Below are positions 3,760-49,391 of a stretch of 49,400 nucleotides of DNA, one piece after another. Source of the DNA: Trichoplax sp. H2 (taxonomy: Eukaryota); the NCBI GenBank assembly GCA_003344405.1, contig NOWV01000018.1, positions 806,001-855,400 on the forward strand. Direction: 5' to 3'. Position numbers and translations under genes: made by a program. Within the stretch, counting starts at the first letter, position 1; each line of letters begins with the position of its first letter. The notes beneath the pieces are model-generated. The model saw nothing but the letters and a program-made list of their open reading frames with translations. It was not told the DNA's origin and did not search any database.

Positions 3760-4552
3760 CGGCTCCTTCGTTGTTCACTGACTAACAAGTAAAACATACT
3801 CTTAACGATAATAGCGAATCAACTAAACAGTTACGATACGAAACATGTCAGCAATTATGTCAAATCTTTAGTAAAATTTCTGAAAAATTACTATTTATCA
3901 ATAATCCTATTCCAGTTCGATGGTATGAAATTCTACAATTACTTCTAGAAGAAAGGGAAGAAAAGACGATAAAGAAGATACTTACTAAGGCAGAAATTAA
4001 AGACTTGATATCCATACATCATTTAGCTGAAGACGGATAGAATATAGATCATTTGTTATCATACTTGCATGATATCGGACAAATTGTCTATTGTGATAAG
4101 GACAAGATTTTAAGTAAAATGATAGTATCAGATATCGATTGGATGATTGAGGTATTTTGTTCATTAATTCAAATTACACTTTTCAAATCTCCTCATACCG
4201 ATGACTGGACAGATTGTGAGAAGATTAAGATTACTGGTAAAATAAGTGAACGATACATTCGACATGTTTGGTTTAAATTTAATCTAGATGACGATCATCG
4301 AAATGATGTATTATCTCTTAGGACTCATTACCATATACTATGTTCAGCAAGTGAATTGAAAGGAAATGATCATATCTATTTTATTCCATATCTTCTTCAT
4401 ACACAACCTAAGGGCGATGAATTATATCCATGGAATAGTGCAAAGTCGAAATGTATCTATTTAGAATTTGATTAGGAAGAGTTACCTAGTATTTCTGATA
4501 TATTTTATTGTTTGATTCCACTATGTAGCAAAGTATTCATATCAACGCAGCC
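3760..4552 (+). pseudogene. Roco-family (Roc-COR) gene fragment, COR domain, with in-frame stops
   Basis: One frame reads ...LFTD*QVKH...FINNPIPVRWYEILQLL...AEDG*NIDHLLSYLHDIGQIVYCDKD...IVSDIDWMIEVF...YFIPYLL...YLEFD*EELPSISDIFYCLIPLC. IPxxW, LxxLHxxGxIxY, IxDxxW and YFIPxLL are typical COR motifs. Stops at 3783-3785, 4038-4040 and 4473-4475 interrupt the homology. Confidence 0.75.
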
Positions 4553-19890: not shown

Positions 19891-21298
19891 ATATAAAAGT
19901 ACATGAAATTTTAAGCACATTCATATCGATTAACCGTATTGTAAATTCATACTTAAAATATAGCAGTCCATTATACCATTATTAATCTTTTAATATCATC
20001 CTGAGTTATACTGGATATTGAACATATTTCAAAGAATCTTCTCTTACGAAAAAGAAAGATTGTAATGGGAATAAATTATCGAAATTCTCCCGGATTGCTG
20101 CCCATTATAGATTGCAGGAGAATATGCTAAAAACGCATAATATAGACAATACGCTATAACCTATGGCTAGTAATAGAGAAAATCAAATTGGTATATATTA
20201 ATCCTCTTACCTCAATTTGACCACCAGCTGTTGATGTTGACTGCAATCGATCGTGACTATTGAGTTTTAACAAATGTTTGCGAAGTTAAATTCAAAGGAA
20301 ATAATCAATGCACTCATCACTTTTATTCAGTCATTTTCAAAAAAAATCTCAAGCGTTAAGAAGGCAATTGTAATAGGGTAGAATAAATAGATAACTTAAT
20401 ACTTTGAAATAATATCGGAATTAATTCTTAAATCATTGAAAAAAATGCAGCCATGAATAATACTTAAATATTTTAAGCTAAATATGATACAGATTAATAG
20501 AATAAGATCGGTGACCTTTCATTGCTTGGGCGATTAGATCATTGATATGTTTTATTCAATCCTGGAGATTTACTAACCAGTTAAGATGTAAACTAATCAT
20601 TAAAAAGTTAACTTCATGCTATCATACATTAAATGAATCATTTACATTCGAGATGGAATCGACCACAGTAGGTAAAAGAGAAGCTAAAGTTCTTATAAAT
20701 GATGGGCCTTACAACAGTTGTCTTTTTACATGTTAGCAGATTTATCAATGATGACAAAATCTTTTCCTAACTTATCGAGTTAATATCATCTACCCATACA
20801 AGGAGTAAATTTCTGAATAGCAAAGGAAATGGTTTGACACCTCCAATAAATCTAACTGTTTTATATTCCAAGTTGCACTAACATGAAAAACGAATCACTA
20901 GTTGATATCTACTGTATGAATATGCACTCAATTATTTCAACTTGACCCTAGCGGTAGCGAATAAACATGCAGCTGGTAATTCTCGCCAGATTATTTCCAT
21001 TCAATACATCTTGACTCTAAAGTAGTAAATTCTTACAGCTTTTACTGATTAGCAGTCTTATAAAGCAGCGTAAATTCTACAAATAAAAGCTCCAATCTAT
21101 CAATGTCATCGTCTCTATTTTTCCATTTCATTTTCAGCCTTTTTGTATTTATTTCGTGGCCATTGATTTACGAATATCATTTTAATCATGTATGCCTAAA
21201 CAATTCATTCGTTGTTCATCTATTTTATCGATTATCCTAGAACATAGTACCAAAATGAAGTAGGTAGATTAACATAATTGTTTTTCATTCTATTGCAG

Positions 21299-23941
21299 CT
21301 TCGGGCCCTCCGTACATATGCCTTTGCACGCAAAGTTGCAATGCAGCATTAAACGAAAGACGCACATGTACAGCTCAAATTAGCTGTTTTCATAGCATTG
21401 TTAAGAATAATGCCACTGGAGTTATTGAAGAAAATCATGGCTGTTTCGATCATATACTTCAAAGTAAATTTTGTGGCCGCCAAACTCCACTTTCATCGGT
21501 GGTGTGTTGTAAAAGTAATTACTGCAATGATAATGTTCATGGAACTGGAAGCGATAAAATACGTGCTACACTACCAATTACTACACCTACTACAGGTAAT
21601 AAAAGAAGTAAATCATTCATTTTTATTTAGTAAAGTTAATTGCAATTCTATAGCACTGATTGCTCTTTTAATACAAATTAAATGTTAACTGTATGATTTT
21701 ATCTTTCCTAATATCACTTTCTAGCTGCCACAACAGGCCAAAGTATTGGTGGATCGGATGGATTTATGCTTGCGTTAACTATTGTTATTCCTGTCTTAGT
21801 ATTATTACTAGTAGCTGCTATTGCTGTATGGCTTATACGAAGATCGCATCAACGCCATATGAGAGAATTATCGTCAAACAATTTGAAAGATCTAGAATTA
21901 AACCTTAAAGAGCAAGTTCCTTACTACCCACCAGATCGAACAGCAAGGTCGACCACAGATTATACATCGCAGCAAACTGGTATGCAAACAGAAATGACTT
22001 CAGGCAGTGGTTCAGGAGTTCCTCGCCTAGCTACGCGTACATTGGCTAAAGATGTTAAATTATTAAATGTTGTTGGTAAGTAGAGGCCAAGATAATTTGA
22101 AGTTATTGGCTATAATTATTCCATTGGTTTTGACTTTGCTCTTATAAGGCACAAATGTACTCAAAACCCAAAGTGCTAGAAATAGATTTGCATAATACTA
22201 TAAATCGATTTCGATAAGTTTTCCCATCCTAGCATTAAAGTTGCATGACCCTAGATAATGTGTATCTTAAAGATTCCATAAATTGAGATCTAGTAATATC
22301 AGATAGTATTAAAGATCGAAATATCATAAAGTCTTTCATTTGTATTATGGAGTCTTAGCTCAAAGTTTGCTATATCCATTTCTATAAGATACTGCAGTTG
22401 TTATATTTAAGTTATAGAAAACAATGTCGTTCACTTTCGCTTCTAAAGATGGATGAAATTGAACCAGTTTCTTATAAAATGCGATTAGAGAGGCTTTTTC
22501 TAAAGTGTTATGTACTGTATTCTTTCCCGCAGTATCCATTAAAATCAATCAAAAAGTTTATATCAATGATTTAAATTCGCCTTTTCCTCTTCATACTGTT
22601 AATCGATCATTTTCTCACCTATATCTTGATTTGGCTATGATATTATTAGGTAAAGGTCGTTATGGCGATGTTCGTAAAGCTAAGTATCATGGGCAAAAAG
22701 TCGCTGTCAAAATATTTTCTTCGCGCGATGAAAGATCATGGTTACGTGAACGGCACATCTATGAAAACGTCCTTACTCGCCATGAAAATGTACTGTGTTA
22801 TTATGCATCTGATATGACTTCCAGCCAATCCTGCACGCAAATGTGGCTAATGACCCAATATCATGAGAATGGATCATTATATGATTATCTACAACGTCAA
22901 GTACTTGACCCATTAGAGCTGCTACGTTTAGCTTACTCGGCTTCAAGTGGTTTAGCCTACTTACATACAGAAATTGTGGGAACGCACGATAAATTAGCTG
23001 TGGCACATCGTGATGTTAAAAGTAAAAATATTTTAATTATGGACAATGGTAACTGTTGTGTGGCTGACATGGGCCTTGCAGTTACATTTAGTTCTGATCG
23101 TGGAATCCTTAATCTCGGCGATAATCCTAAAGTGGGTACCAAACGTTACATGCCACCAGAAGTTTTAACTGAACGATTCAATCAAGACAATTTTGATTCA
23201 TTCCGCAAAATGGATGTTTACTCATTTGGATTAGTTCTATGGGAGATCGCTAGAAGATGTAAAACAGAATGTAAGTATTCAATGGACGAGAATGAATGAT
23301 ATGGTGAAACTTACTAATTGAATCATCTTACGCTTAAAATGAATAATTAACATCTTCTCATTTCTCCTCTTAATGATATAGATGCCGATGCCGATGAATA
23401 TCAACTGCCTTACTTTGGTAAAGTTCCTAATGATCCTTCGGTCGATGAAATGAGAAAAATAGTGGTTGAAGATAAAATAAGGCCACAAATACCCAAAAGA
23501 CTCAAGAACCATGAGGTAAGCGTATTATTTATTTTGGTCACTCCTAAATCTAACTGTATATCATACCATTAGGATAGGACAGTTTTCGAGATCCGTTATA
23601 GTTTCTATGATAATCCGTAAATTAACAGTCATATTACATCGTTTTTTATGGATAAAATCATTGAAATTAAATCATCTAATTAGATATACAAGATATCATA
23701 CTTAATTAAGAAGGTTGATCAGCGATTATGCCTTTTATTAATTGTATGGTTTCTTTCAATTATTCTATTGATGAAATAGATTTTAAGGCCATACTGTAAA
23801 GTAATTCGAGAATGCTGGAGCGAGAATCCAAGTTCAAGATTGTCCATGCTACGAGTCAAGAAGACATTGATGAAAATGGTCAATAAGCTAGAATTTCAGA
23901 AATCGAAAGATTTGGCATCGAGTAATGAGGCAATAGCGTAA
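21299..23941 (+). CDS. ACVR1: TGF-beta/BMP type I receptor Ser/Thr kinase, ALK1/2 (ACVR1/Saxophone) class; signal-peptide exon not identified
   Basis: Exons 21299-21595 (10-Cys ectodomain ending CCKSNYCN), 21725-22075 ([27 protein letters not shown] box TSGSGSG), 22650-23270 (GKGRYG, VAVKIF, L45 loop [37 protein letters not shown]), 23382-23515 and 23780-23941 (ECW...[14 protein letters not shown]). All junctions are GT-AG and in phase. The ASDMTS L45 loop is diagnostic of ALK1/2. Confidence 0.93.
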
Positions 23942-25579
23942 AATTATAAAGGCAGTTGATTCAAATATAAATATTTCAGAATTTTATAGACGGCAGCAAT
24001 GCATCCATCGGATTCCTCGTTTTATTTCTTTTTAATTCGTTTCAAGCTAGTCATTATTGAGAACTTGATGACAAATGAAACTTATACCCTATTGTGATAA
24101 GTATTGTCGTCGTACCCTCTTTGGGTTACTTCTTCATCTTGCGCGTTTATTTACTTCTACCTGATAGTTATTCATTATCAGTTAGAAATGTTAATTTGTT
24201 TCATTTTTTTTTTACATTTTTTTGAGGGACTTTTTTAGTTTTTAATTAGCAAAGCTAAAGTTTTGACCAATGCTTCTATTAATGCCATGTTGTGTTCGAG
24301 ATAGTAGATAATAAGGCTTCTATAAAGCCATTTCTTACCTTTGTGAAATATCTGCACTTTATCAGAGTATAACCTTATACTAGTAGAATTGCAGCCATCT
24401 CTACTTTTCAGACACTATTTGTCTGATTTATTGATATTATCTTCCTGTAAATACCTTTTATATCGCATGTACATCCTACTTGTCATGAGCAAAAATGTAG
24501 CGATAACTAGAAAGCGACAATTGAAAGTGATGAAATTAATTTTGGTAGCTATATCATATCGTTAAATGATCTGGTATCGCTGATATTGACATATTAGTGT
24601 ACATAAATTTGCGCGTACTGTACTGTATATACTTATATGAGTATTGATATCTCATATACACGTACGTTTATTCCAACATGTAGACTTTTCTTACATGTAT
24701 AATACATATAAGATTATGTATACAATCCAATTTGTTTGTATTCTGTTTTTAACTATTAATGATTAAATAATTTACTACTGATAGAAATCAACCTTGTACA
24801 GTACAGTATATGATCAATCCTATAGTTACTTGTAGTTTAGCAAATACTACGATAATTACTAACATCTCCAAATTGGATAGTAATCCTGTGATCTTTATTT
24901 TTTATGCATAATTCCACAGTATCAGATTCTATTGGTCAAAGCTAACCATTTTAACTATCAAAGTCGGTGTAAAAAATTGCTTTGCTTGGATTATGATTTG
25001 TCTAGGTCAAATTACGATATAAAATTTATAAAAAATATCTCTATAAATTTCTATATACACATACACATATATATTTGTGTATTCACAATCATCAATCGCT
25101 AGAAGATATTCTTCTAGCAAACTAAAGATTTCGAAGTATTTTCCTTCAAGTGTTACATTTATAAATTTTAAGGATTTTCTTTTCTTTTGTTCAAATTTTT
25201 TAAAGAATAGCTCTAATCGTACATGTCATCACAATTTCGCATTGTCGATAAAATGCACAATTTTGCTAAATTTCCTTACACGCTATACCTGAATAATTAA
25301 AATTGTTTTCATTTCCAACAATAACAGTATATGTTCATGTCTTCAAACTGAAAATTTTATTTTATCATGAACATAAAAATTAATGTATTATATATTATAA
25401 TTTGTTTGACTGTATTGTTGGCTTCTTAATTTTCGGTCTGTAATATCAAATTAACATTGATTTGTAAATATATAGCTGACAATCACTATCTTCAGTTGAA
25501 TAAATCGGCTTTCTTAACAATTAATCACATGATGTTGTCTAATGAAGTTGTGAAAATTGCTTAAATTTAATTGCTATAG

Positions 25580-27063: not shown

Positions 27064-30000
27064 TTAAATTTTCATATCTCCGCTATGCAACAGACTATGC
27101 AATGTCTTCTTTACACGCAACACAGGCAGTCTAGATTCATTGTTGTCCGACCAACATTCCCTAATGATCTTGCAAATTGGACTGATGAACTGCATTTCAT
27201 ATAAAAGAACATTTAATTAGGCATTAATGTCTATTTCATCAAAGACGATTCAAAACTACACATGCTTCATGTGAAGGCAGCTACAGCGATATGATACCAA
27301 TATGAAATGGAGATTTATTAATTGACTGTGAACTGTTTTAATAATAACTTTTAAAATAGGCACACTTACCGGGTGAATCTCCCATTCTTTCTTCAAACGA
27401 GGACGTCTCTTACCTACTACAACGACTCTTCTCATCTCTTCTATGCTAGGATCATGGGGTACCATTTCCGAAAAACAAGGCGCATAATCGTCTGGAGTAC
27501 CTACAAGATTGTTATACGCGTATAAAGTTAGATTGAAGCAAATACTCTACCTTATGAGTTTACACAGATAAAATTCAAATTATGAGCGTGAAACCTGTTA
27601 TGTTACTTCGAGACAAAACTTCCCATAACACTAAACCAAATGAATAGATATCCGCATTTTTAAAAGCGTCGAAGCTTCTCATGTTCAGAGTATCTTCTAT
27701 GACTTCCGGAGGCATGTAACGTCTTGTGCCAACTCTCTCGTTAGACGGTATATCAATAGTATTTGATTTTGAATAATAACACACGGCTAACCCCAAGTCT
27801 CCAATTGCACAACTTCCATCTTTCTTTACCAAAATATTATTACTCTTTATATCACGGTGAGCAATAGCTGGTTTTCCTACATCATAAAATTTTACTATTA
27901 TATATCTACAACTAGTTTAACTACATATAACTTACACAAAACGATATAATAATACTTAGTGTAATTGTTTCCTATATTCCTTTACCTCTTATCCCTATCA
28001 TTTCAGTGTGCAGGTGGGCCAATCCACAACAAATTGAATAGGCAATTTTAAATAATGCTTCTTGATTTAAAGTGGTGTCGGATAGGTAATTAAATAAAGA
28101 TCCGTTTTCATGATACTCAGTTATTAGCCATAATTCTGTACATGTGCCAGCGTCCTTGTTATCCGCGGCTATGAACCGAAGAATGTTTTCATGTTGAAGC
28201 ATAACTACACGATTATAAAAAGTATAGCATTGTATGTCAATTGGGATATTGGAGATATCCTTAAAGCAATAGTGTAAATATTCACGTAATACTTTGTCAA
28301 TTAATCTCTAACTACAGCTTACCAGTTTGATAAATTCTAACTTCTCTCGACCAAGAAGCCTCTTCCTTTGATGTGAAAATTTTAACAGCGACATTATCGC
28401 CATGAAGATTTCCCAAATATACTGCACCATATCGGCCTTTTCCAATTGCCGGATACGATATTTTTGTCTTCTTAGCAACCGTCTCTTGCTCCATTATGCG
28501 TGAAATACCATTACGTGGGTCCATTGGTAAGGCAGAAGATCCCACACTGCTTGTTGACGCCCTTCTGCTTTCGGCCACGTTAGTAGGAGGTGGAAAGCAA
28601 AAATTCTGAATTGTTGCTAAAATTCGCTTCTTATTGGTTGTACCAGCTTCACCGTTTTCAAAATCACAGTCGCTAGAACCGTTGCGTCTTCTCCACCAAA
28701 TAATAATAACGCCGACCAAGATAGCTAAAAAACCAACTGATATTATAATCGCTATTACACTACTATCGGGATCCGTCGGCATTGATGTTGGATAATCACT
28801 CGAGGATTCGGTACTGTTCAATCTAGAAACTGTACCAGCGGTACCTATAGTATAGTGATATAAACAAAAGCAGACTACAGTAAATTTTTGGACTATAACT
28901 ACGCTCGTAAGTTCCGTCAAAATTTTTGTTACCAGGAGTAGTAGTTATCGATGAAGTTCCGTTAATTTTATTGCAAAATTCAGAGTAGCAGCATTTGCCA
29001 TACTTGGCAGTTAGTAACTTGCACTTTAGAGTCATATGATCTAAAGGATCTGAAGGGTTGCCAGAAGTTCGATTAAAGCAGCCAGCTACCCACAGTGAGC
29101 CTTCTAATTGTTGGTAGTCGTAATAACAAGCACCGTCAGTATAACAAACATTTCCAAAGCATTGTTGCCCTTCTTCGGATACTCTCTTAATACAATGGCA
29201 CGGGAAGGCTTTTTTACCTAAGTGGGAGTATAATAGTATAATAAAAAGCTGTAATATCTAAAAAGTATAAGTATCTAAGAAAAAATGCTAATTCAAAGTG
29301 GCATAAAAAAGCGAACTTAAGCTATACTAAAAAACATAATATAATACTCTGGCTAACAAGGAATGAAGTCTACGATACTGTAAGAGGCTGTAATGATAAA
29401 ATTTTTAAATCTCTAAAAAATTAGAACTTTGATAGAGTTCATTACTAGTATGAATGGTAGATAAACAGTACAATCATACGATATACGTATAATGAATTAT
29501 ACCAGTGTATTACACAAAGTACGTAAAAAGATATAGGGAAATTTTATCAGTAATAACTATCAATAATTCTTATTCTCTCGCAGTAATATGCAAAAGTCGT
29601 GCCTCGAATATCAACTATTGGATTGTATTTTCAGAAATCCTTATATATTCGTTTATACATACGACAGATACAGAAATATTTAATAAGATTTAATTCTATA
29701 CTATATCTAAGTAGTCAGCTCTACTGTACAAAGGTTATTTGACCAGTTTTTATATACTTTTACAGTAGCGTAAAAAGAAATCCATTGACTCTGAGTACTG
29801 TGTAGTATACCGTGCTATATCCGTTCAACATTAGATATAGTTTATATTAGTTCTAAATTATTTGCTATATAACTGAAAATTGAATACTTAACATTACAGT
29901 ATTGATAGATACCAATACTAATGATGCATAATATAGTACGCGAAAATAAGCTACGCATGCATTTACAGGATTAAATTCAACAATAGTAATGATATGGTTT

Positions 30001-32232
30001 TTAGCAAATGTTTGTTATTATTTTCGATTAATCACAAAGCAATGCCGAATATCCATTACAAAAGTAAGACAATATATTGTTTTCAACATTAATATGTATG
30101 TTTAACCGAATCGGTGGCCCTTTACAACCTGGAAGTTGTATAATATTCATTATCTTTGAAAATTCATTAATCAATATTGTTTTATAATACAAATTTTTAG
30201 TCCATTTGCGTAGTTTCTACTGAAACTTTACCAGTTTATCAAGATAATTGGACTTGGGCAATAATTTGCATTATTCTCATGGGAACCTTGTACCTCATTA
30301 AATGTTTTTCTTTAAATTTATACTCAAGAAAGGTTAAAAAAATCAACTTAACCGCCAATACTGCAAACTAATGGATGATAAACCTCAATCAACGATTTAC
30401 AGACTCTTTAAGAAGTATTCCATTACTGCCGTATAAACTGCATCACCGGATTATACTAAAACTATGAAGTACGGAACTCTCTTCAGCATGTCATTAACTT
30501 TTAACCTTTATAAGTAAAAAGATTCAATTATACTTTGTATAATAATACGAGTCAAAAACGCTAAGCCAGTAAAGTCTATACAATCTCGATTCATATGTTA
30601 GCGTTAACGTATATATGTTGACAGCTTAGGAATTCAATGCATCTATGTACTCAATTTACGTCTACAAAAGACAGAAATGAACAAAAAAGAATTAATGACT
30701 TCATTTTAAAATGTCTGATTAGCATAAAATTATATCTCAAGTAAAATCTATATTGCAATATAGTCAGTAATTACGCATTCTTTCTGGTGAAGAGAATATT
30801 TTAATGATTGTAATGCAACTGTGGCGCAATTATGTAAAATTAAACTCTATTTACGAATAGAAAATGGATAACAAACTGTTGTCAGGAGTTGAAAGCTTTA
30901 ACGATAGGTCAAGAATGTACAAGGAGCAGATGTGAAAACGTTAAGAGCGAGTTTTCGAATTTTTGGCACCATTTAGCATGACTGAAAGAGTTTTTAAAAT
31001 CACGACCTTACTCTGACTTCTTGTAGAATAAAGTATCCATTGATGGATTCCAATGTGGAATAATAACTAACGAACTACGTCTGTATGATTGATAGCAAAC
31101 AAAATTGGCAAAAACGGCTGCAGTATTGGAATCTACTGTTGTAATAGAACTATATGAATAATTTAATCATGATAAGATCCGTCATACTTTATTGCTCGCA
31201 TATACTGTACACTATTATACAGTGATAAACAATGCAATAATACAGATCTACTAAAATAGCTCATAACGACTACATTAAGGTAGAATGGCAATTATTCATC
31301 AGACACATTTCTTTATACTGATTAATCAAATGATTTTAATCCTTTAATGTGTAAGAAATCATAGACCGTAGCAATACATACTCAAATTCAATCATAAATT
31401 ATTAGTCAGCGACGTGAAGTAACCTTTATTGATTTCTAGTAAAAACGTAACTTTTAGATACTGTCGTTATGAATCTGGAATAAAATAAGGAAAGTAAATT
31501 GACAAATTTCCCATTTTCTGACTTTAATATTAACCTACTGCCGTTTACTATCAGACTATCAACTTATCTTTGTTGTTAACATTCAATGCATCCTATTTAG
31601 AATACGTAGTATTGAAAATGCATTTCTGATTCAAAGTTGAAATTACCCTTATTAATTATCAAGAGTACTGTATATCTAGATCCAAGTACATCTACAGTCA
31701 GTAAGTAAGTATACTTATAGTACGTATCATCATAGAATTAATATTTTCCTTACGATAGTAGCATTAATTAATTAAAAGTGCAGAAAGGGTGGAATAAATT
31801 GTGTGCTAGGAAATAGCTAGGTTAAGTCAATGGAAGCTTATGATACGAGTTTTAAAATTATTTGTGCTTTAATTTTCTTTTCAATCATAACTCTCCACTT
31901 TTACAATGTAGAGAATAGTAAAAAAGAGATACGATGATCCATCCTTTCTATTGCATATTACAAAAACTACTGCCGCAGAAGTTGCTACATCCTTGACAGT
32001 AGCTATTGAACTCATTTTGACATGAGTAACCCTATTGCGTTACCAATGAAAGTGGATTGTAATAACATAAAAAAGTAATCATTTCTACCCATTTGAAGAC
32101 AACTTTGTGTATATATACAATAATGATCCATCAACAATACTTACTTGGCGATGTCGGGCCAGTCTGTGCTATTGCCACAGACATTAAAAATAGCAATAGC
32201 AATAAAGGCATAGCAAGTTTTTCAGTAAGCAT
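27064..32232 (-). CDS. TGFBR1: TGF-beta/activin type I receptor Ser/Thr kinase, ALK4/5/7 (TGFBR1/ACVR1B/Baboon) class, 550 aa
   Basis: Seven coding exons: 32232-32145 (signal peptide [22 protein letters not shown]), 29217-28933 (10-Cys ectodomain, CCYSEFCN), 28844-28323 (TM, atypical GS region, GKGRYG, VAVKIF), 28204-27986 (MLQHENIL, L45 loop [15 protein letters not shown]), 27876-27595 ([26 protein letters not shown]), 27500-27370 and 27189-27064 (TAA). Total 1653 nt with consistent phases. The AADNKD L45 loop is diagnostic of ALK4/5/7. Confidence 0.93.
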
Positions 32233-42714: not shown

Positions 42715-42818
42715 TTCATTAAATTGATAAAAAAATAATCAGCCATTACACTCCTTCGCAAATCACTTTAGCTCATATTTCCATCTCGGCATCTATAGTA
42801 GCAGAAAGCGATAACAAA

Positions 42819-45703
42819 ATGGAATCGAAAAGATCTAGTAACGATATAGTTTTAGTCAGTATAGACGAAGATCGAGAAAGTTCGAATGAAAATGGTACTG
42901 TGACTTATCATACTTCTACAAGGTCATCCCTTGAAAATAACGTAGACACAGAAAATAGTAATAATAGATTTGGCGTTGACGACGGCATCAGATCAGTTTC
43001 AAATTCTAACAATCCAATTATCATCGCTATTAAACCAATTTTATGCATATTAAAAGTATTTGGCGTGTACTATTCGGTTCCAGATAACAGTAATGTTATC
43101 AATACGCATTATGACGATTGCCGAAGTGCAATGTTAGCCGACTGTCAACTAAAAAAGAAACGAACAAGAAGAACTATCTTCACTCCTTTGCGACTTTATT
43201 CCCTAGCGGTTTGTTTTTTACTGTGGATTAATGCAGGACGATTCGGGGCTAATGTTTTTATATATCAAAATACATCTTGGATGCCATTTGTTATATTATA
43301 CGTTCTATGGCTTTTCCAAGTAGCAGGCAATGTATCTCTTTATTATTATATGTGCCATCGTAAGTTGCCGATACTCTTTAACCACATTAGTAAGATACAA
43401 AGTAACGAATGTCAAGACTTTTTAGCTTGTATCGGGCGTTATACTAGAAAACGATGTATCTATTTTCTGATTCCGGCGACGATCTTTGCCTCTATAAATA
43501 TCGTGTTTCCTATATTCTCTCAATTTGGTCCAATTACAGAATTGAGAGTTGTAATGGATGTGATAAATAGTCCATGGCAAAATTCTACTGTCTTTCCCTA
43601 CGTGTACATATTTGCAATTCACGTCTATTGTACAATAGCATGGATCTATCCAATGGTTCTATTTTGTTTATGCTGCTTGATAATGGCCCATAAATTCCAT
43701 ACCTTAACTAAACGCTTTAAAAAGGCGATTCTACGGAATAACAGCGATATTATCCGGACTCTAGCGATTTATCGAGAACAACATCAAGCGTACTGTGTTA
43801 TAACAGAATTACTTTCAGATACTTTCTCATTATTTATAGGTTACTTATACGTTACAAACCTTGCAAAAGCTTGCTTTAATTTATATCGCCTAATTTTTAA
43901 CTGGAGTGTAAATGGTTTGTTAATGAACATTACATTAATAATATGGTTCATTGCTACTACTGGTATGACTATAATAACTTCATGGGTTGCTTCTATTCTT
44001 AATGCAGAGGTACAGTATAACAATATTACACTAAACAAGTAATACGATGAAGTTTATTCTCTATTATTATTTCAATATATACGAATTCGAAGTTCGTCAA
44101 GAACGAGTACGCTTACAATACACTAAATTATCATGTTATCGATTTGTATCTATATAATCAATACTTATAATATTGTTAAATATATTAAACATAAAAATAC
44201 AAAAACTTGAATAATGATGTAAATAGACTCGTAAAATTGTTATCTAAATTTAGACAATTTCGACTTCCCTTTCGAAGTAACTAAGATTTATCGCTTAGTA
44301 TTCCGTTACGCTAGATTTGATTTAATGGTATTTTATTGTAATAAATATTCTTAGGCACATTCTCCAATATCAGTGTTATACTCTCTACAAACTCGAAATA
44401 TTGGTAACGACGGATTAGCAGAGGTAAGCTTTATCGCAATTTCTACATAAGTAATAACATAAAATCAAGTTAAAGTATATACTGTAAACATATTACTTTA
44501 TGTCGTATTGTACTATTTCGCAGTCACTCATAACATTATCGTATGTAGCTTATCAGTAAAATTACTTTTATTTTCTATTAATTATAATAAATTAGCTAAT
44601 GCATTACCAGTATTGAATATGCAGACAAAGTAATAGCAAATGATTGTAGGAAACAGTGAAGACTGTAGGCGCTATAAATAAATTAACATAACAAACTATA
44701 TTTGAGTATAATTGAAATAGACTGTAAAGCTATCTATATTCGGTATAATACAAGATGTCTATATTTAATTAAGAATATGTTACAGACTACAGTGAAATCT
44801 AAATACACTGCAATCAATAACTCAAGATATTGTCTATATGTAGATGGTAGCAATTTATTAACGATCGTTTATAACTGTATAAGATTAAATAAGTAATATT
44901 TCTTTAAAGCTGATCTAGTAAAATTCTAATAAAATTCAATTTTCTATAGTTGCTCCTATTTCAATCTCGCCTTCTAGCAGAACCCATTGGTATCAGTATT
45001 GTTGGAATGTTTGTGATAACAAGATCTTTGATTTTAACAGTAAGTGTTACCTACATTTCTTAAGATGTATTATTACAACTAACTAGGTACATTTTCAGAT
45101 CTCTATTTACAATTCTTTCTCATTACTGTTTATATTTATATAATGGGCGAGATATCGCAGTTTATGTCTAAAGTATAGTTTCTTTAGTGAGAAATATATG
45201 GGATTGAATTTAGTTGTCTTTACTGCGGTAGCTATCTTATGTAGGTACTAATAGGCGATATGGACTGCAGCTAATATTAATATTAATTCTATTTCGACCT
45301 TAACTTAAAATATTAGAAAAGATCCATTACATACATTCAGTTACGCCATTACCCAATAAAGTGATTTTAAGATTGTGGCATCAAAACTTAGTATACATTA
45401 CGTATAAGTATATAATTACATAGTACGTATATAATATAGGAGTATTAAGTCGGTAAGCCTGAGTCTCTTTCTAGATTCGCATGATTATACTGTCAATTAT
45501 CGTTTTATCAGAATAAGTTAAAATGAATGATATATGTAATTAATTAGCTGTTAGACTACTAGGTCTTCTGTGACTGTAATATATATCTTTACGGATATCT
45601 TTGATAACGCGATAGTAATCTTTATATTTTATTTTTTCTAAAGTTGCTAGGTATTTTTGTTACCTACTTCTTTCTTTTAGCGCAGCTACATGGAAAGGCT
45701 TAA
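42819..45703 (+). CDS. Grl: Gustatory receptor-like protein (GRL, 7TM ion channel superfamily), 469 aa (here GRL-A)
   Basis: Exons 42819-44009, 44355-44423 (AHSPISVLY...), 44950-45039 (LLLFQSRLLAEPIGISIVGMFVITRSLILT) and 45644-45703 (LLGIFVTYFFLLAQLHGKA*). Multiple TM helices, a C-terminal TYhhhhhQ motif and three phase-0 introns at the 3' end are hallmarks of GR/GRL genes. Confidence 0.92.
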
Positions 45704-47734: not shown

Positions 47735-47819
47735 TTGATGAAACAATAATCAGTCATTACGACCCTTCGTAAATCACTTTAACTCACACTTCTATATAGT
47801 TGCAGAAAGCGACAACAAA

Positions 47820-49391
47820 ATGAAATCGAATAAATTTAGTAATGATATAGTTCCACTTAACATAAATGAAGATCGAAAAAATTCGGATAAAAGTGGGACT
47901 ATAGCTCGTCATATTTCTACAAGATCATCCCTTGAAAATAACGTAGACACGGAAAATAGTAATAATAGATTTGGCATTGACGACGGCATCAGACCTATTA
48001 CAAATTCTAACGATCCAATTATCATCGCTATTAAACCAATTTTATGCATATTAAAAGTATTTGGCATCTATTATTCGAATCGTGAACATCGAACTTCAAT
48101 GTTAGCCGACTGTCAACTAAAAAAGAAGCGATCAAGAAAGACTTTTTTCACGCCTTTACGAATTTATGGCTTGGCGGTTTGCCTTGTGCTATGGATCAAT
48201 ACAGGACGATTCTGGGCTAATATTTTTACATATCAAAATACATCTTGGATGCCATTTGTTATATTATACGTTCTATGGCTTTTCCAAGTAGCAGGCAATG
48301 TATCTCTTTATTATTATATGTGCCATCGTAAGTTGCCGATACTCTTTAAGCACATTAGTAAGATACAAAGTAACGAAAGTCAAGACTTTTTAGCTTGTAT
48401 CGGGCGTTATACTAGAAAACGGTGTATCTATTTTCTGATTCCGGCGACGATCTTTGCCTCTATTAATATCGTGTTTCCTATATTCTCTCAATTTGGTCCA
48501 ATTACAGAATTGAGAGCTGTAATGGATGTGATAAATAGTCCGTGGCAAAATTCTACTGTCTTTCCCTACGTGTACATATTTGCAATTCACGTCTATTGTA
48601 CAATAGCATGGATCTATCCAATGGTTCTATTTTGTTTATGCTGCTTGATAATGGCCCATAAATTCCATACCTTAACTAAACGCTTTAAAAAGGCGATTCT
48701 ACGGAATAACAGCGATATTATCCGGACTCTAGCGATTTATCGAGAACAACATCTAGCGTACTGTGTTATAACAGAATTACTTTCAGATACTTTCTCATTA
48801 TTTATAGGTTACTTATACGTTACAAACCTTGCAATAGCTTGCTTTAATTTATATCGCCTAATTTTTAACTGGAGCGTAAATGGTTTGTTAATGAACATTA
48901 TACTAATAATATGGTTCATTGCTACTACTGGTATGACTATAATAATTTCATGGGTTGCTTCTATTCTTAATGCAGAGGTACAGTATAACAATATTACACT
49001 AAACAAGTAATACGATGAAGTTTATTCTCTATTATTATTTCAATATATACGAATTCGAAGTTCGTCAAGAACGAGTACGCTTACAATACACTAAATTATC
49101 ATGTTATCGATTTGTATCTATATAATCAATACTTATAATATTGTTAAATATATTAAACATAAAAATACAAAAACTTGAATAATGATGTAAATAGACTCGT
49201 AAAATTGTTATCTAAATTTAGACAATTTCGACTTCCCTTTCGAAGTAACTAAGATTTATCGCTTAGTATTCCGTTACGCTAGATTTGCTTTAATGGTATT
49301 TTATTGTAATAAATATTCTTAGGCACATTCTCCAATATCAGTGTTATACTCTCTACAAACTCGAAATATTGGTAACGACGGATTAGCAGAG
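47820..49391 (+). CDS. Grl: Gustatory receptor-like protein (GRL-B), tandem paralogue; continues beyond the window end
   Basis: Exon 1 47820-48977 (386 codons, donor GAG|GTACAG); exon 2 49323-49391 is identical to GRL-A exon 2. The window ends in intron 2. Confidence 0.9.

Follow-up and report, generated by a model that had tools for sequence, protein, structure and literature searches.

Type I receptors are defined by the GS box, which hardly varies among them. According to the parts of the mechanistic literature covered here (PMC3481300, PMC7911104, PMC5865211, PMC8368100, PMC9876800 and bioRxiv 10.1101/170837), the phosphosites of TGFBR1/ALK5 are T185, S187, S189 and S191, FKBP12 binds type I receptors through L195-L196, every human type I receptor but no type II receptor has the Arg at R372, and R258 of ALK2 is the Arg that clamps the GS loop. 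Excerpts of PMC8368100 further present a model in which E250 meets the N-lobe of the type II receptor, and describe the basic NANDOR residues as needed for type II dimerisation or docking. Caenorhabditis elegans DAF-1, a type I receptor, has an altered GS region and, according to excerpts of a secondary source (PMC5865211), reportedly does not need type II kinase activity for signalling. For Trichoplax, Huminiecki et al. 2009 (PMC2657120) described TaBabo as one of three type I receptors, discussing, in the parts consulted, its deep branching and not its GS region. The receptor studied here, which a kinase tree places with ALK4/5/7, is probably TaBabo, because Trichoplax has two type I receptors besides this one, and they fall with Sax and Tkv; no accession or sequence to confirm the identity was found in the consulted parts of PMC2657120 and its supplements. 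The consulted text of the Trichoplax pathway papers (PMC2657120, PMC3169577, PMC5684314, PMC6501881) makes no mention of a GS change, and our literature search, which covered running text and few subscription papers, found no description of one; a printed alignment may show it. The placozoan receptor shares with TGFBR1/ALK5 and Babo/ALK4/5/7 receptors a common architecture, the L45 loop type, the catalytic residues, the Arg-Asp lock, the NANDOR box, LP and the Q-x-T helix. It differs from TGFBR1/ALK5 in lacking SGSGSG, in a 9-residue insertion, in a basic RR-x-S that replaces the acidic run, and in changes at the equivalents of R199 (Glu), W224 (Leu), E247 (Arg), R255 (Gln) and G261 (Arg).

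We analysed a 49,400-nt stretch of Trichoplax sp. H2 DNA (contig NOWV01000018.1, positions 806,001 to 855,400; here called the window), in which the Babo/ALK4/5/7 type I receptor gene has seven exons on the minus strand with GT-AG borders (Table 1). Translation of the joined exons reproduces P0155 (RDD45165.1, 550 aa, recorded as TGF-beta receptor type-1, Trichoplax sp. H2) letter for letter. The protein combines a signal peptide, a Cys-rich ectodomain whose Pfam match is below cut-off, one transmembrane helix and a Ser/Thr kinase. Splicing was judged from assembled RNA contigs, from which rare isoforms drop out. The five joints of exons 2-7 are present in three of four runs (X4, X5 and X8, from three studies), and exon 1 was seen as a loose-end match, also in three of the four. 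X5 is RNA on record and X4 and X8 are RNA by guess; X13, with only short unspliced pieces, was excluded from the splice evidence. The first-pass annotation had placed the GS stretch within one open exon, and contigs from the three studies keep that exon whole: it is unbroken in X4 and X8, and in no run do the RNA contigs show a splice joint inside 28323-28841. The receptor gene is intact and spliced. The kinase portion of the receptor does not differ from that of T. adhaerens TRIADDRAFT_22033, whose 319-aa model starts at Met232, just past LP, and therefore lacks the serine cluster. A Sax-type gene (about 21100-23941, plus strand) and the Babo-type gene (27064-32232, minus strand) lie tail to tail about 3 kb apart; the RNA contigs of the two stop near 25124 and 26312, respectively, with no overlap.

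Table 1. Features of the Babo/ALK4/5/7-type receptor gene, in window coordinates.
Feature	Positions	Strand	Evidence
Exon 1: start codon and signal peptide	32145..32232	-	RNA contigs' loose end at 29217 matches; P0155 model
Exon 2: cysteine-rich extracellular domain	28933..29217	-	RNA contigs; weak Activin_recp match, E 1.9, below cut-off
Exon 3: stalk, transmembrane helix, entire GS-equivalent segment, kinase start	28323..28844	-	RNA contigs, P0155
Transmembrane helix, about aa 153-175	28693..28761	-	Sequence; helix in AlphaFold2 model
Juxtamembrane helix (aa 196-210), conserved; weak candidate for the alphaGS1 equivalent	28588..28632	-	Invariance; low-pLDDT model helix 196-207
Consensus RR-x-S for basophilic kinases (aa 218-221), with A, D or G as x	28555..28566	-	Three-sequence alignment
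Serine cluster T222-P231, homologous to ALK5 T185-P194	28525..28554	-	Register counted back from LP against consensus
Insertion M232-R240, nine residues: four variable (three in P0152), then invariant NGISR	28498..28524	-	Alignment
Equivalent of alphaGS2 (I241-K250), with Ile-Met in the FKBP12-pocket positions and Glu (P0152: Gln) for the QRT Arg	28468..28497	-	Alignment
Exon 4: kinase N-lobe with Q302 (ALK5 R255, ALK2 R258) and R308 (ALK5 G261)	27986..28204	-	RNA contigs, alignment
ALK5-type L45 loop (exon 4)	28134-28160	-	Alignment
Exon 5: HRD, DLG, activation-loop Arg419 (ALK5 R372 lock) intact	27595..27876	-	Sequence
Exon 6: kinase C-lobe	27370..27500	-	RNA contigs, P0155
Exon 7: NANDOR box (R529, R534, K536, K537 kept) and stop codon	27064..27189	-	P0155, alignment

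Positions 28441-28566 of the minus strand form one open frame of 42 residues, and a reading of this frame found no SGSG. With L230-P231 set as ALK5 L193-P194 and residues counted backwards, T222, S223, S224 and S228 fall on ALK5 T185, T186, S187 and S191; the S189 position is Gly, with a Ser one residue on. The four ALK5 phosphosites thus correspond to two invariant Ser, one Thr present in two of three sequences, and one site shifted by a residue, and the glycines of the repeat are mostly gone. From LP to the Q of Q-x-T there are 12 residues against 3 in the family consensus, hence nine extra, and the QRT Arg position is Glu245. The missing GSGS repeat, the ~9 extra residues and the Glu had all been annotated at first pass and hold as stated against the minus-strand translation and the consensus. 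The accompanying claim that the canonical GS box had been lost stands for the SGSG repeat and the Pfam signature, and fails for LP, the Ser/Thr sites and the hydrophobic pair, which are kept: a Ser/Thr cluster, LP and a Q-x-T helix still precede the kinase, and L195-L196 aligns to I241-M242, a conservative, hydrophobic change. To call the GS box lost is an overstatement: by alignment this stretch remains a homologue of the GS loop.

How far the segment departs from other type I receptors was assessed with a profile and with two sets of relatives. PF08515 (TGF_beta_GS) gave no match at E<=10 on exon 3 and none on the full receptor protein, P0152 or P0168 (two orthologous exons described below). 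It matched both paralogues, the Sax-type neighbour at E 3.9e-5 and the Tkv-type at E 0.006, and these are its only two places in the genome (at 21991 and in the Tkv-type gene). Among the nearest relatives (119 non-self kinase hits, 118 anchored; largely from arthropods and lacking any named cnidarian, sponge or ctenophore), SGSG is present in 115 of the 118, the other three being without the region. All 115 SGSG-bearing sequences have Arg at QRT, and 114 have an SGSG-to-Q spacing of 11-13, against 20 in the placozoan receptor. By these counts the placozoan change exceeds ordinary variation. In a more diverse set the QRT Arg is kept in 50 of 56 SGSG-bearing hits, the rest having Gln, Ser, Ala or Lys; 92 of its 148 anchored hits lack SGSG and were not scored as divergent, being by eye mostly single-exon fragments that start in or after the motif. 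Since this Arg is replaced in several other type I receptors, Glu alone is not special, and among placozoan-type sequences it is not fixed (Gln in P0152). The charge upstream of the serines is also unusual. The ten residues before the cluster carry a net charge of +1, +1 and +2 in the three placozoan-type sequences, whereas none of the 167 canonical receptors scored has a positive net charge there, and [RK]R-x-S/T occurs within 12 residues of SGSG in none of the 168 canonical GS-bearing receptors among 268 examined.

Because ctenophore type I receptors and most glass sponge ones are reported to have GS regions (consulted parts of PMC3169577 and PMC5684314), the placozoan state may be derived. 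Two other cases resemble it. An unnamed family (P0006, P0008, P0153, P0154) has a serine cluster without SGSG, a non-Arg residue at 255 and Arg at 261, as does P0158 (KAI2802700.1), a Sax-group receptor of the mite Blomia tropicalis with a degenerate GS segment. The family members also have a short insertion before a Q-x-T-like helix and an altered glycine-rich loop, and the mite receptor has Glu at the QRT Arg position; P0154 and P0158 lack a PF08515 match. The ESM Atlas assigned the P0154 family to no taxon. Their sequences differ from the placozoan one, with no RR-x-S adjoining the serines, and, since P0158 belongs to the Sax group, at least its divergence arose separately. The phenomenon is therefore rare, not unique.

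A search for orthologues among near-length proteins returned two proteins from two candidates. P0152 and P0168 are orthologous exons 71% and 65% identical to RDD45165.1, single-exon fragments that we regard as placozoan on the basis of this identity. Searches for further orthologues returned only one unrelated bacterial locus in metagenome contigs and, among longer proteins, only the T. adhaerens cluster. Both exons show the same layout without SGSG. Across the three sequences, invariant positions number 8 of 26 in the stalk and 8 of 23 in the transmembrane helix, rise to 14 of 16 in the juxtamembrane helix (aa 195-210), and fall to 0 of 7 in the linker before RR-x-S. They then amount to 3 of 4 in RR-x-S, 8 of 10 in T222-P231 (including S223, S224, S227, S228 and LP), 0 of 4 in the first part of the insertion, 5 of 5 in NGISR and 16 of 18 in the residues that follow. 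Five serines, LP and RR-x-S are thus invariant in all three while the flanks have turned over. One amino-acid-changing RNA variant is listed in the segment, P211S (X5, X8), and it falls in the variable linker. Because a constrained segment lies between variable linkers, one of which holds the RNA variant, the segment is under selection, not decaying. The pattern is best explained by a rebuilding of the GS domain that predates the split of the three sampled placozoan-type lineages, with constraint ever since. Two cytoplasmic juxtamembrane cysteines (28597-28599 and about 28663-28665, minus strand) are likewise invariant in all three sequences; lipidation sites are a guess.

The receptor's best match of solved structure is ALK5 (374 bits, with BMPR1B at 360, ACVR1 at 352 and type II receptors at <=223), and in a 22-row kinase-only tree it groups with Babo/ALK4/5/7 at 95/95, bearing out the ALK4/5/7-like assignment of the first-pass annotation; placement in the Tkv group was rejected (p-AU 0.025). 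The branch is long (1.17). The tree includes no cnidarian, sponge or other non-bilaterian reference, and for want of an outgroup 'ancestral' status is beyond its reach; in a 53-row quick tree the type II outgroup landed inside the Babo group, and that tree was unused for rooting. Six of nine L45 loop residues are as in ALK5, and both paralogues have other loop types. The kinase motifs, initially noted as intact, align with the catalytic residues kept: the equivalents of K232, E245, D333, D351 and R372 are all retained, the lock being R419 plus D398, as are all four basic NANDOR residues for type II docking. Judged by kinase, architecture and phylogeny the receptor is a member of this family, yet the canonical GS motif does not recognise it. 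The Sax/ALK2-type neighbour has departures of its own, with Asp at the ALK2 Gly328 position (about 22990-22993, plus strand), a disease-mutation site in the consulted literature, and His at the E250 position.

Partner genes are present. The genome holds three type I receptor genes (Babo-, Sax- and Tkv-type), only one of them ALK4/5/7-type, a single type II receptor gene, four Smads including a Smad2/3 that ends in SQS, five ligands, one of them with nine cysteines (TGF-beta/activin-type), and exons of a multi-exon, animal-type FKBP12 gene (L031). A second FKBP (L024:1492-1863, minus strand) is a single exon with a single domain and presumably resembles plant FKBP12. We also considered whether the kinase N-lobe has co-evolved with the GS change. 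Departures were not enriched there (14 of 59 positions, against 20 of 90 in the C-lobe; Fisher p 0.84, with 115 of 119 hits used; P0169-P0171 and P0174, whose kinases are duplicated or partial, were left out), and R255Q, G261R, W224L and E247R therefore cannot be claimed as co-adaptation.

In the AlphaFold2 model the kinase is confident and matches ALK5 (Z 44.3, rmsd 1.3, 301 residues aligned to 1py5). pLDDT is <50 over aa 203-233 and 235-243, and a canonical control (P0257) likewise falls below 50 in its GS loop; the low values therefore say nothing about order, and we dismissed predicted disorder as evidence on the segment. An untrimmed overlay on 1ias starts at model residue 197 and chain residue 175, a weak hint that helix 196-207 could be alphaGS1 and that the loop may have grown to about 33 residues.

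Somewhat better than even, in our estimate (roughly 0.55), is the reading that this is a remodelled switch that the type II receptor still phosphorylates. It draws on the retained serines, LP, hydrophobic pair, lock and NANDOR box and on the presence of the partner genes. From the sequence, splicing, conservation pattern, orthology and partner genes we infer the biochemical steps as follows. The Gly-Ser repeat would have become a longer, glycine-poor serine cluster lying 8-9 residues farther from the alphaGS2 helix. Ligand, probably the single 9-cysteine one of TGF-beta/activin type, would bring in the single type II receptor, which would dock on the kept basic C-lobe surface and phosphorylate S223, S224, S227 and S228. 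Phosphorylation would open the Arg-Asp lock and, together with the ALK5-type L45 loop, recruit Smad2/3; FKBP12 would probably still be bound via Ile241-Met242. Several findings count against this reading. The clamp Arg (ALK2 R258) is Gln, with Arg in 115 of 115 references. The E250 equivalent is Arg and the G261 equivalent is Arg, against 115 of 115 and 113 of 115 references, respectively. ALK5 G261E reportedly blocks phosphorylation by the type II receptor. The long branch also weighs against it, as does the net basic run before the serines; a kinome-wide study of motifs, in its consulted parts, groups the TGF-beta receptor kinases with the acidophilic ones, including the phospho-primed CK1, CK2 and GRK.

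That basic run might, though we think it fairly unlikely, have an alternative use, compatible with a type II-driven switch. The first-pass annotation had singled out RRAS, which we take to be a PKA-type consensus, and the motif is conserved in all three placozoan-type sequences. A basophilic kinase (PKA, PKG, CaMKII or similar) might phosphorylate S221 and so license or tune the type II step, the phosphate replacing the acidic residues that precede canonical GS loops; Smad2/3 output would then need both ligand and a second messenger. RR and S never change among the three, whereas x (A, D or G) and the flanks do, so RRAS appears to be more than noise. The absence of such a motif near SGSG in canonical receptors, the reversed upstream charge and the clustering with phospho-primed kinases point the same way. 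On the other hand, the three sequences share one ancestor and therefore record a single event, 3-6% of shuffled versions of the segment contain an RRxS/T, the Arg pair could have a structural role, and RR-x-S fits many basophilic kinases in the sources as consulted; no report of PKA action on a GS domain was among the matches listed in our literature search. Rather doubtful is the stricter form, a coincidence detector in which a cAMP- or calcium-driven kinase must phosphorylate the RR-x-S serine, thereby providing the negative charge that Asp/Glu residues give in other animals, before the type II receptor acts on the rebuilt GS serines and releases Smad2/3 signalling. If true, it would gate the TGF-beta pathway from GPCR signalling at the receptor level, in a nerveless animal.

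The substitutions around the segment could also be read as a loosened brake, which we consider unlikely: the rebuilt segment would form no inhibitory wedge, and the receptor might be leaky or partly type II-independent, in the manner of DAF-1, its precedent. Several of the changed positions are activating disease sites in ALK2, according to the literature as consulted, among them R202 (Glu/Gln) and R258 (Gln, also in the orthologue exons P0156 and P0157); both Trichoplax paralogues keep Arg at the latter (ALK5 R255). The insertion displaces the L196-P197 pair of ALK2, and the combination of non-Arg 255 and Arg 261 recurs in the unnamed family and in the mite receptor. Yet P0107 and P0164 have the same 255/261 pair with a near-canonical GS loop, the equal departures in both lobes mean that general fast evolution may explain the changes, and the R372-D351 lock and NANDOR box are kept. 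The radical changes at the G261, E247 and W224 equivalents and the vanished Pfam signature would also fit a segment that is no longer an activation switch, in a receptor that is a poorly activatable modulator or is trans-activated by another type I receptor. This is improbable for the only ALK4/5/7-type gene of the three, which sits beside an intact Smad2/3 and keeps its catalytic residues, L45 loop and invariant serines. Least credible by far is an artefact, in which mis-assembly, a retained intron or alternative splicing conceals a canonical GS box: rare isoforms do drop out of RNA contigs, but the exon is whole in three studies and has the same layout in two orthologues, the insertion is 27 nt, none of 35 in-frame GT..AG pairs (>=40 nt, exon 3) lies between LP and Q, and no third PF08515 match exists in the genome, so that a hidden intron or alternative exon was largely ruled out.

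Given the near-invariance of the GS box, a conserved and expressed natural rebuild would show what the switch requires (the serines, LP, the hydrophobic pair and the lock) and what it can spare (the glycine repeat, exact spacing and clamp arginine). With it one could readily test the choice of GS serines by type II kinases, and whether phosphorylation can supply the upstream negative charge. Should activation prove ordinary, the receptor would be a variant particular to its lineage and of modest interest. The segment is missed both by Pfam GS filters and by the public model from T. adhaerens, which is truncated.

Elsewhere in the window, two tandem ORFs on the plus strand (42723-44042 and 47742-49010) encode proteins of about 430 aa that are 85% identical and have several hydrophobic stretches; they match no Pfam family above cut-off and are possibly chemoreceptor-like, which is a guess. 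An ORF at 3786-4475 (plus strand) has a COR-A (ROCO-type) match below cut-off (E 7.4e-8) and continues the frame of another ORF across one stop codon, possibly as part of a broken gene.
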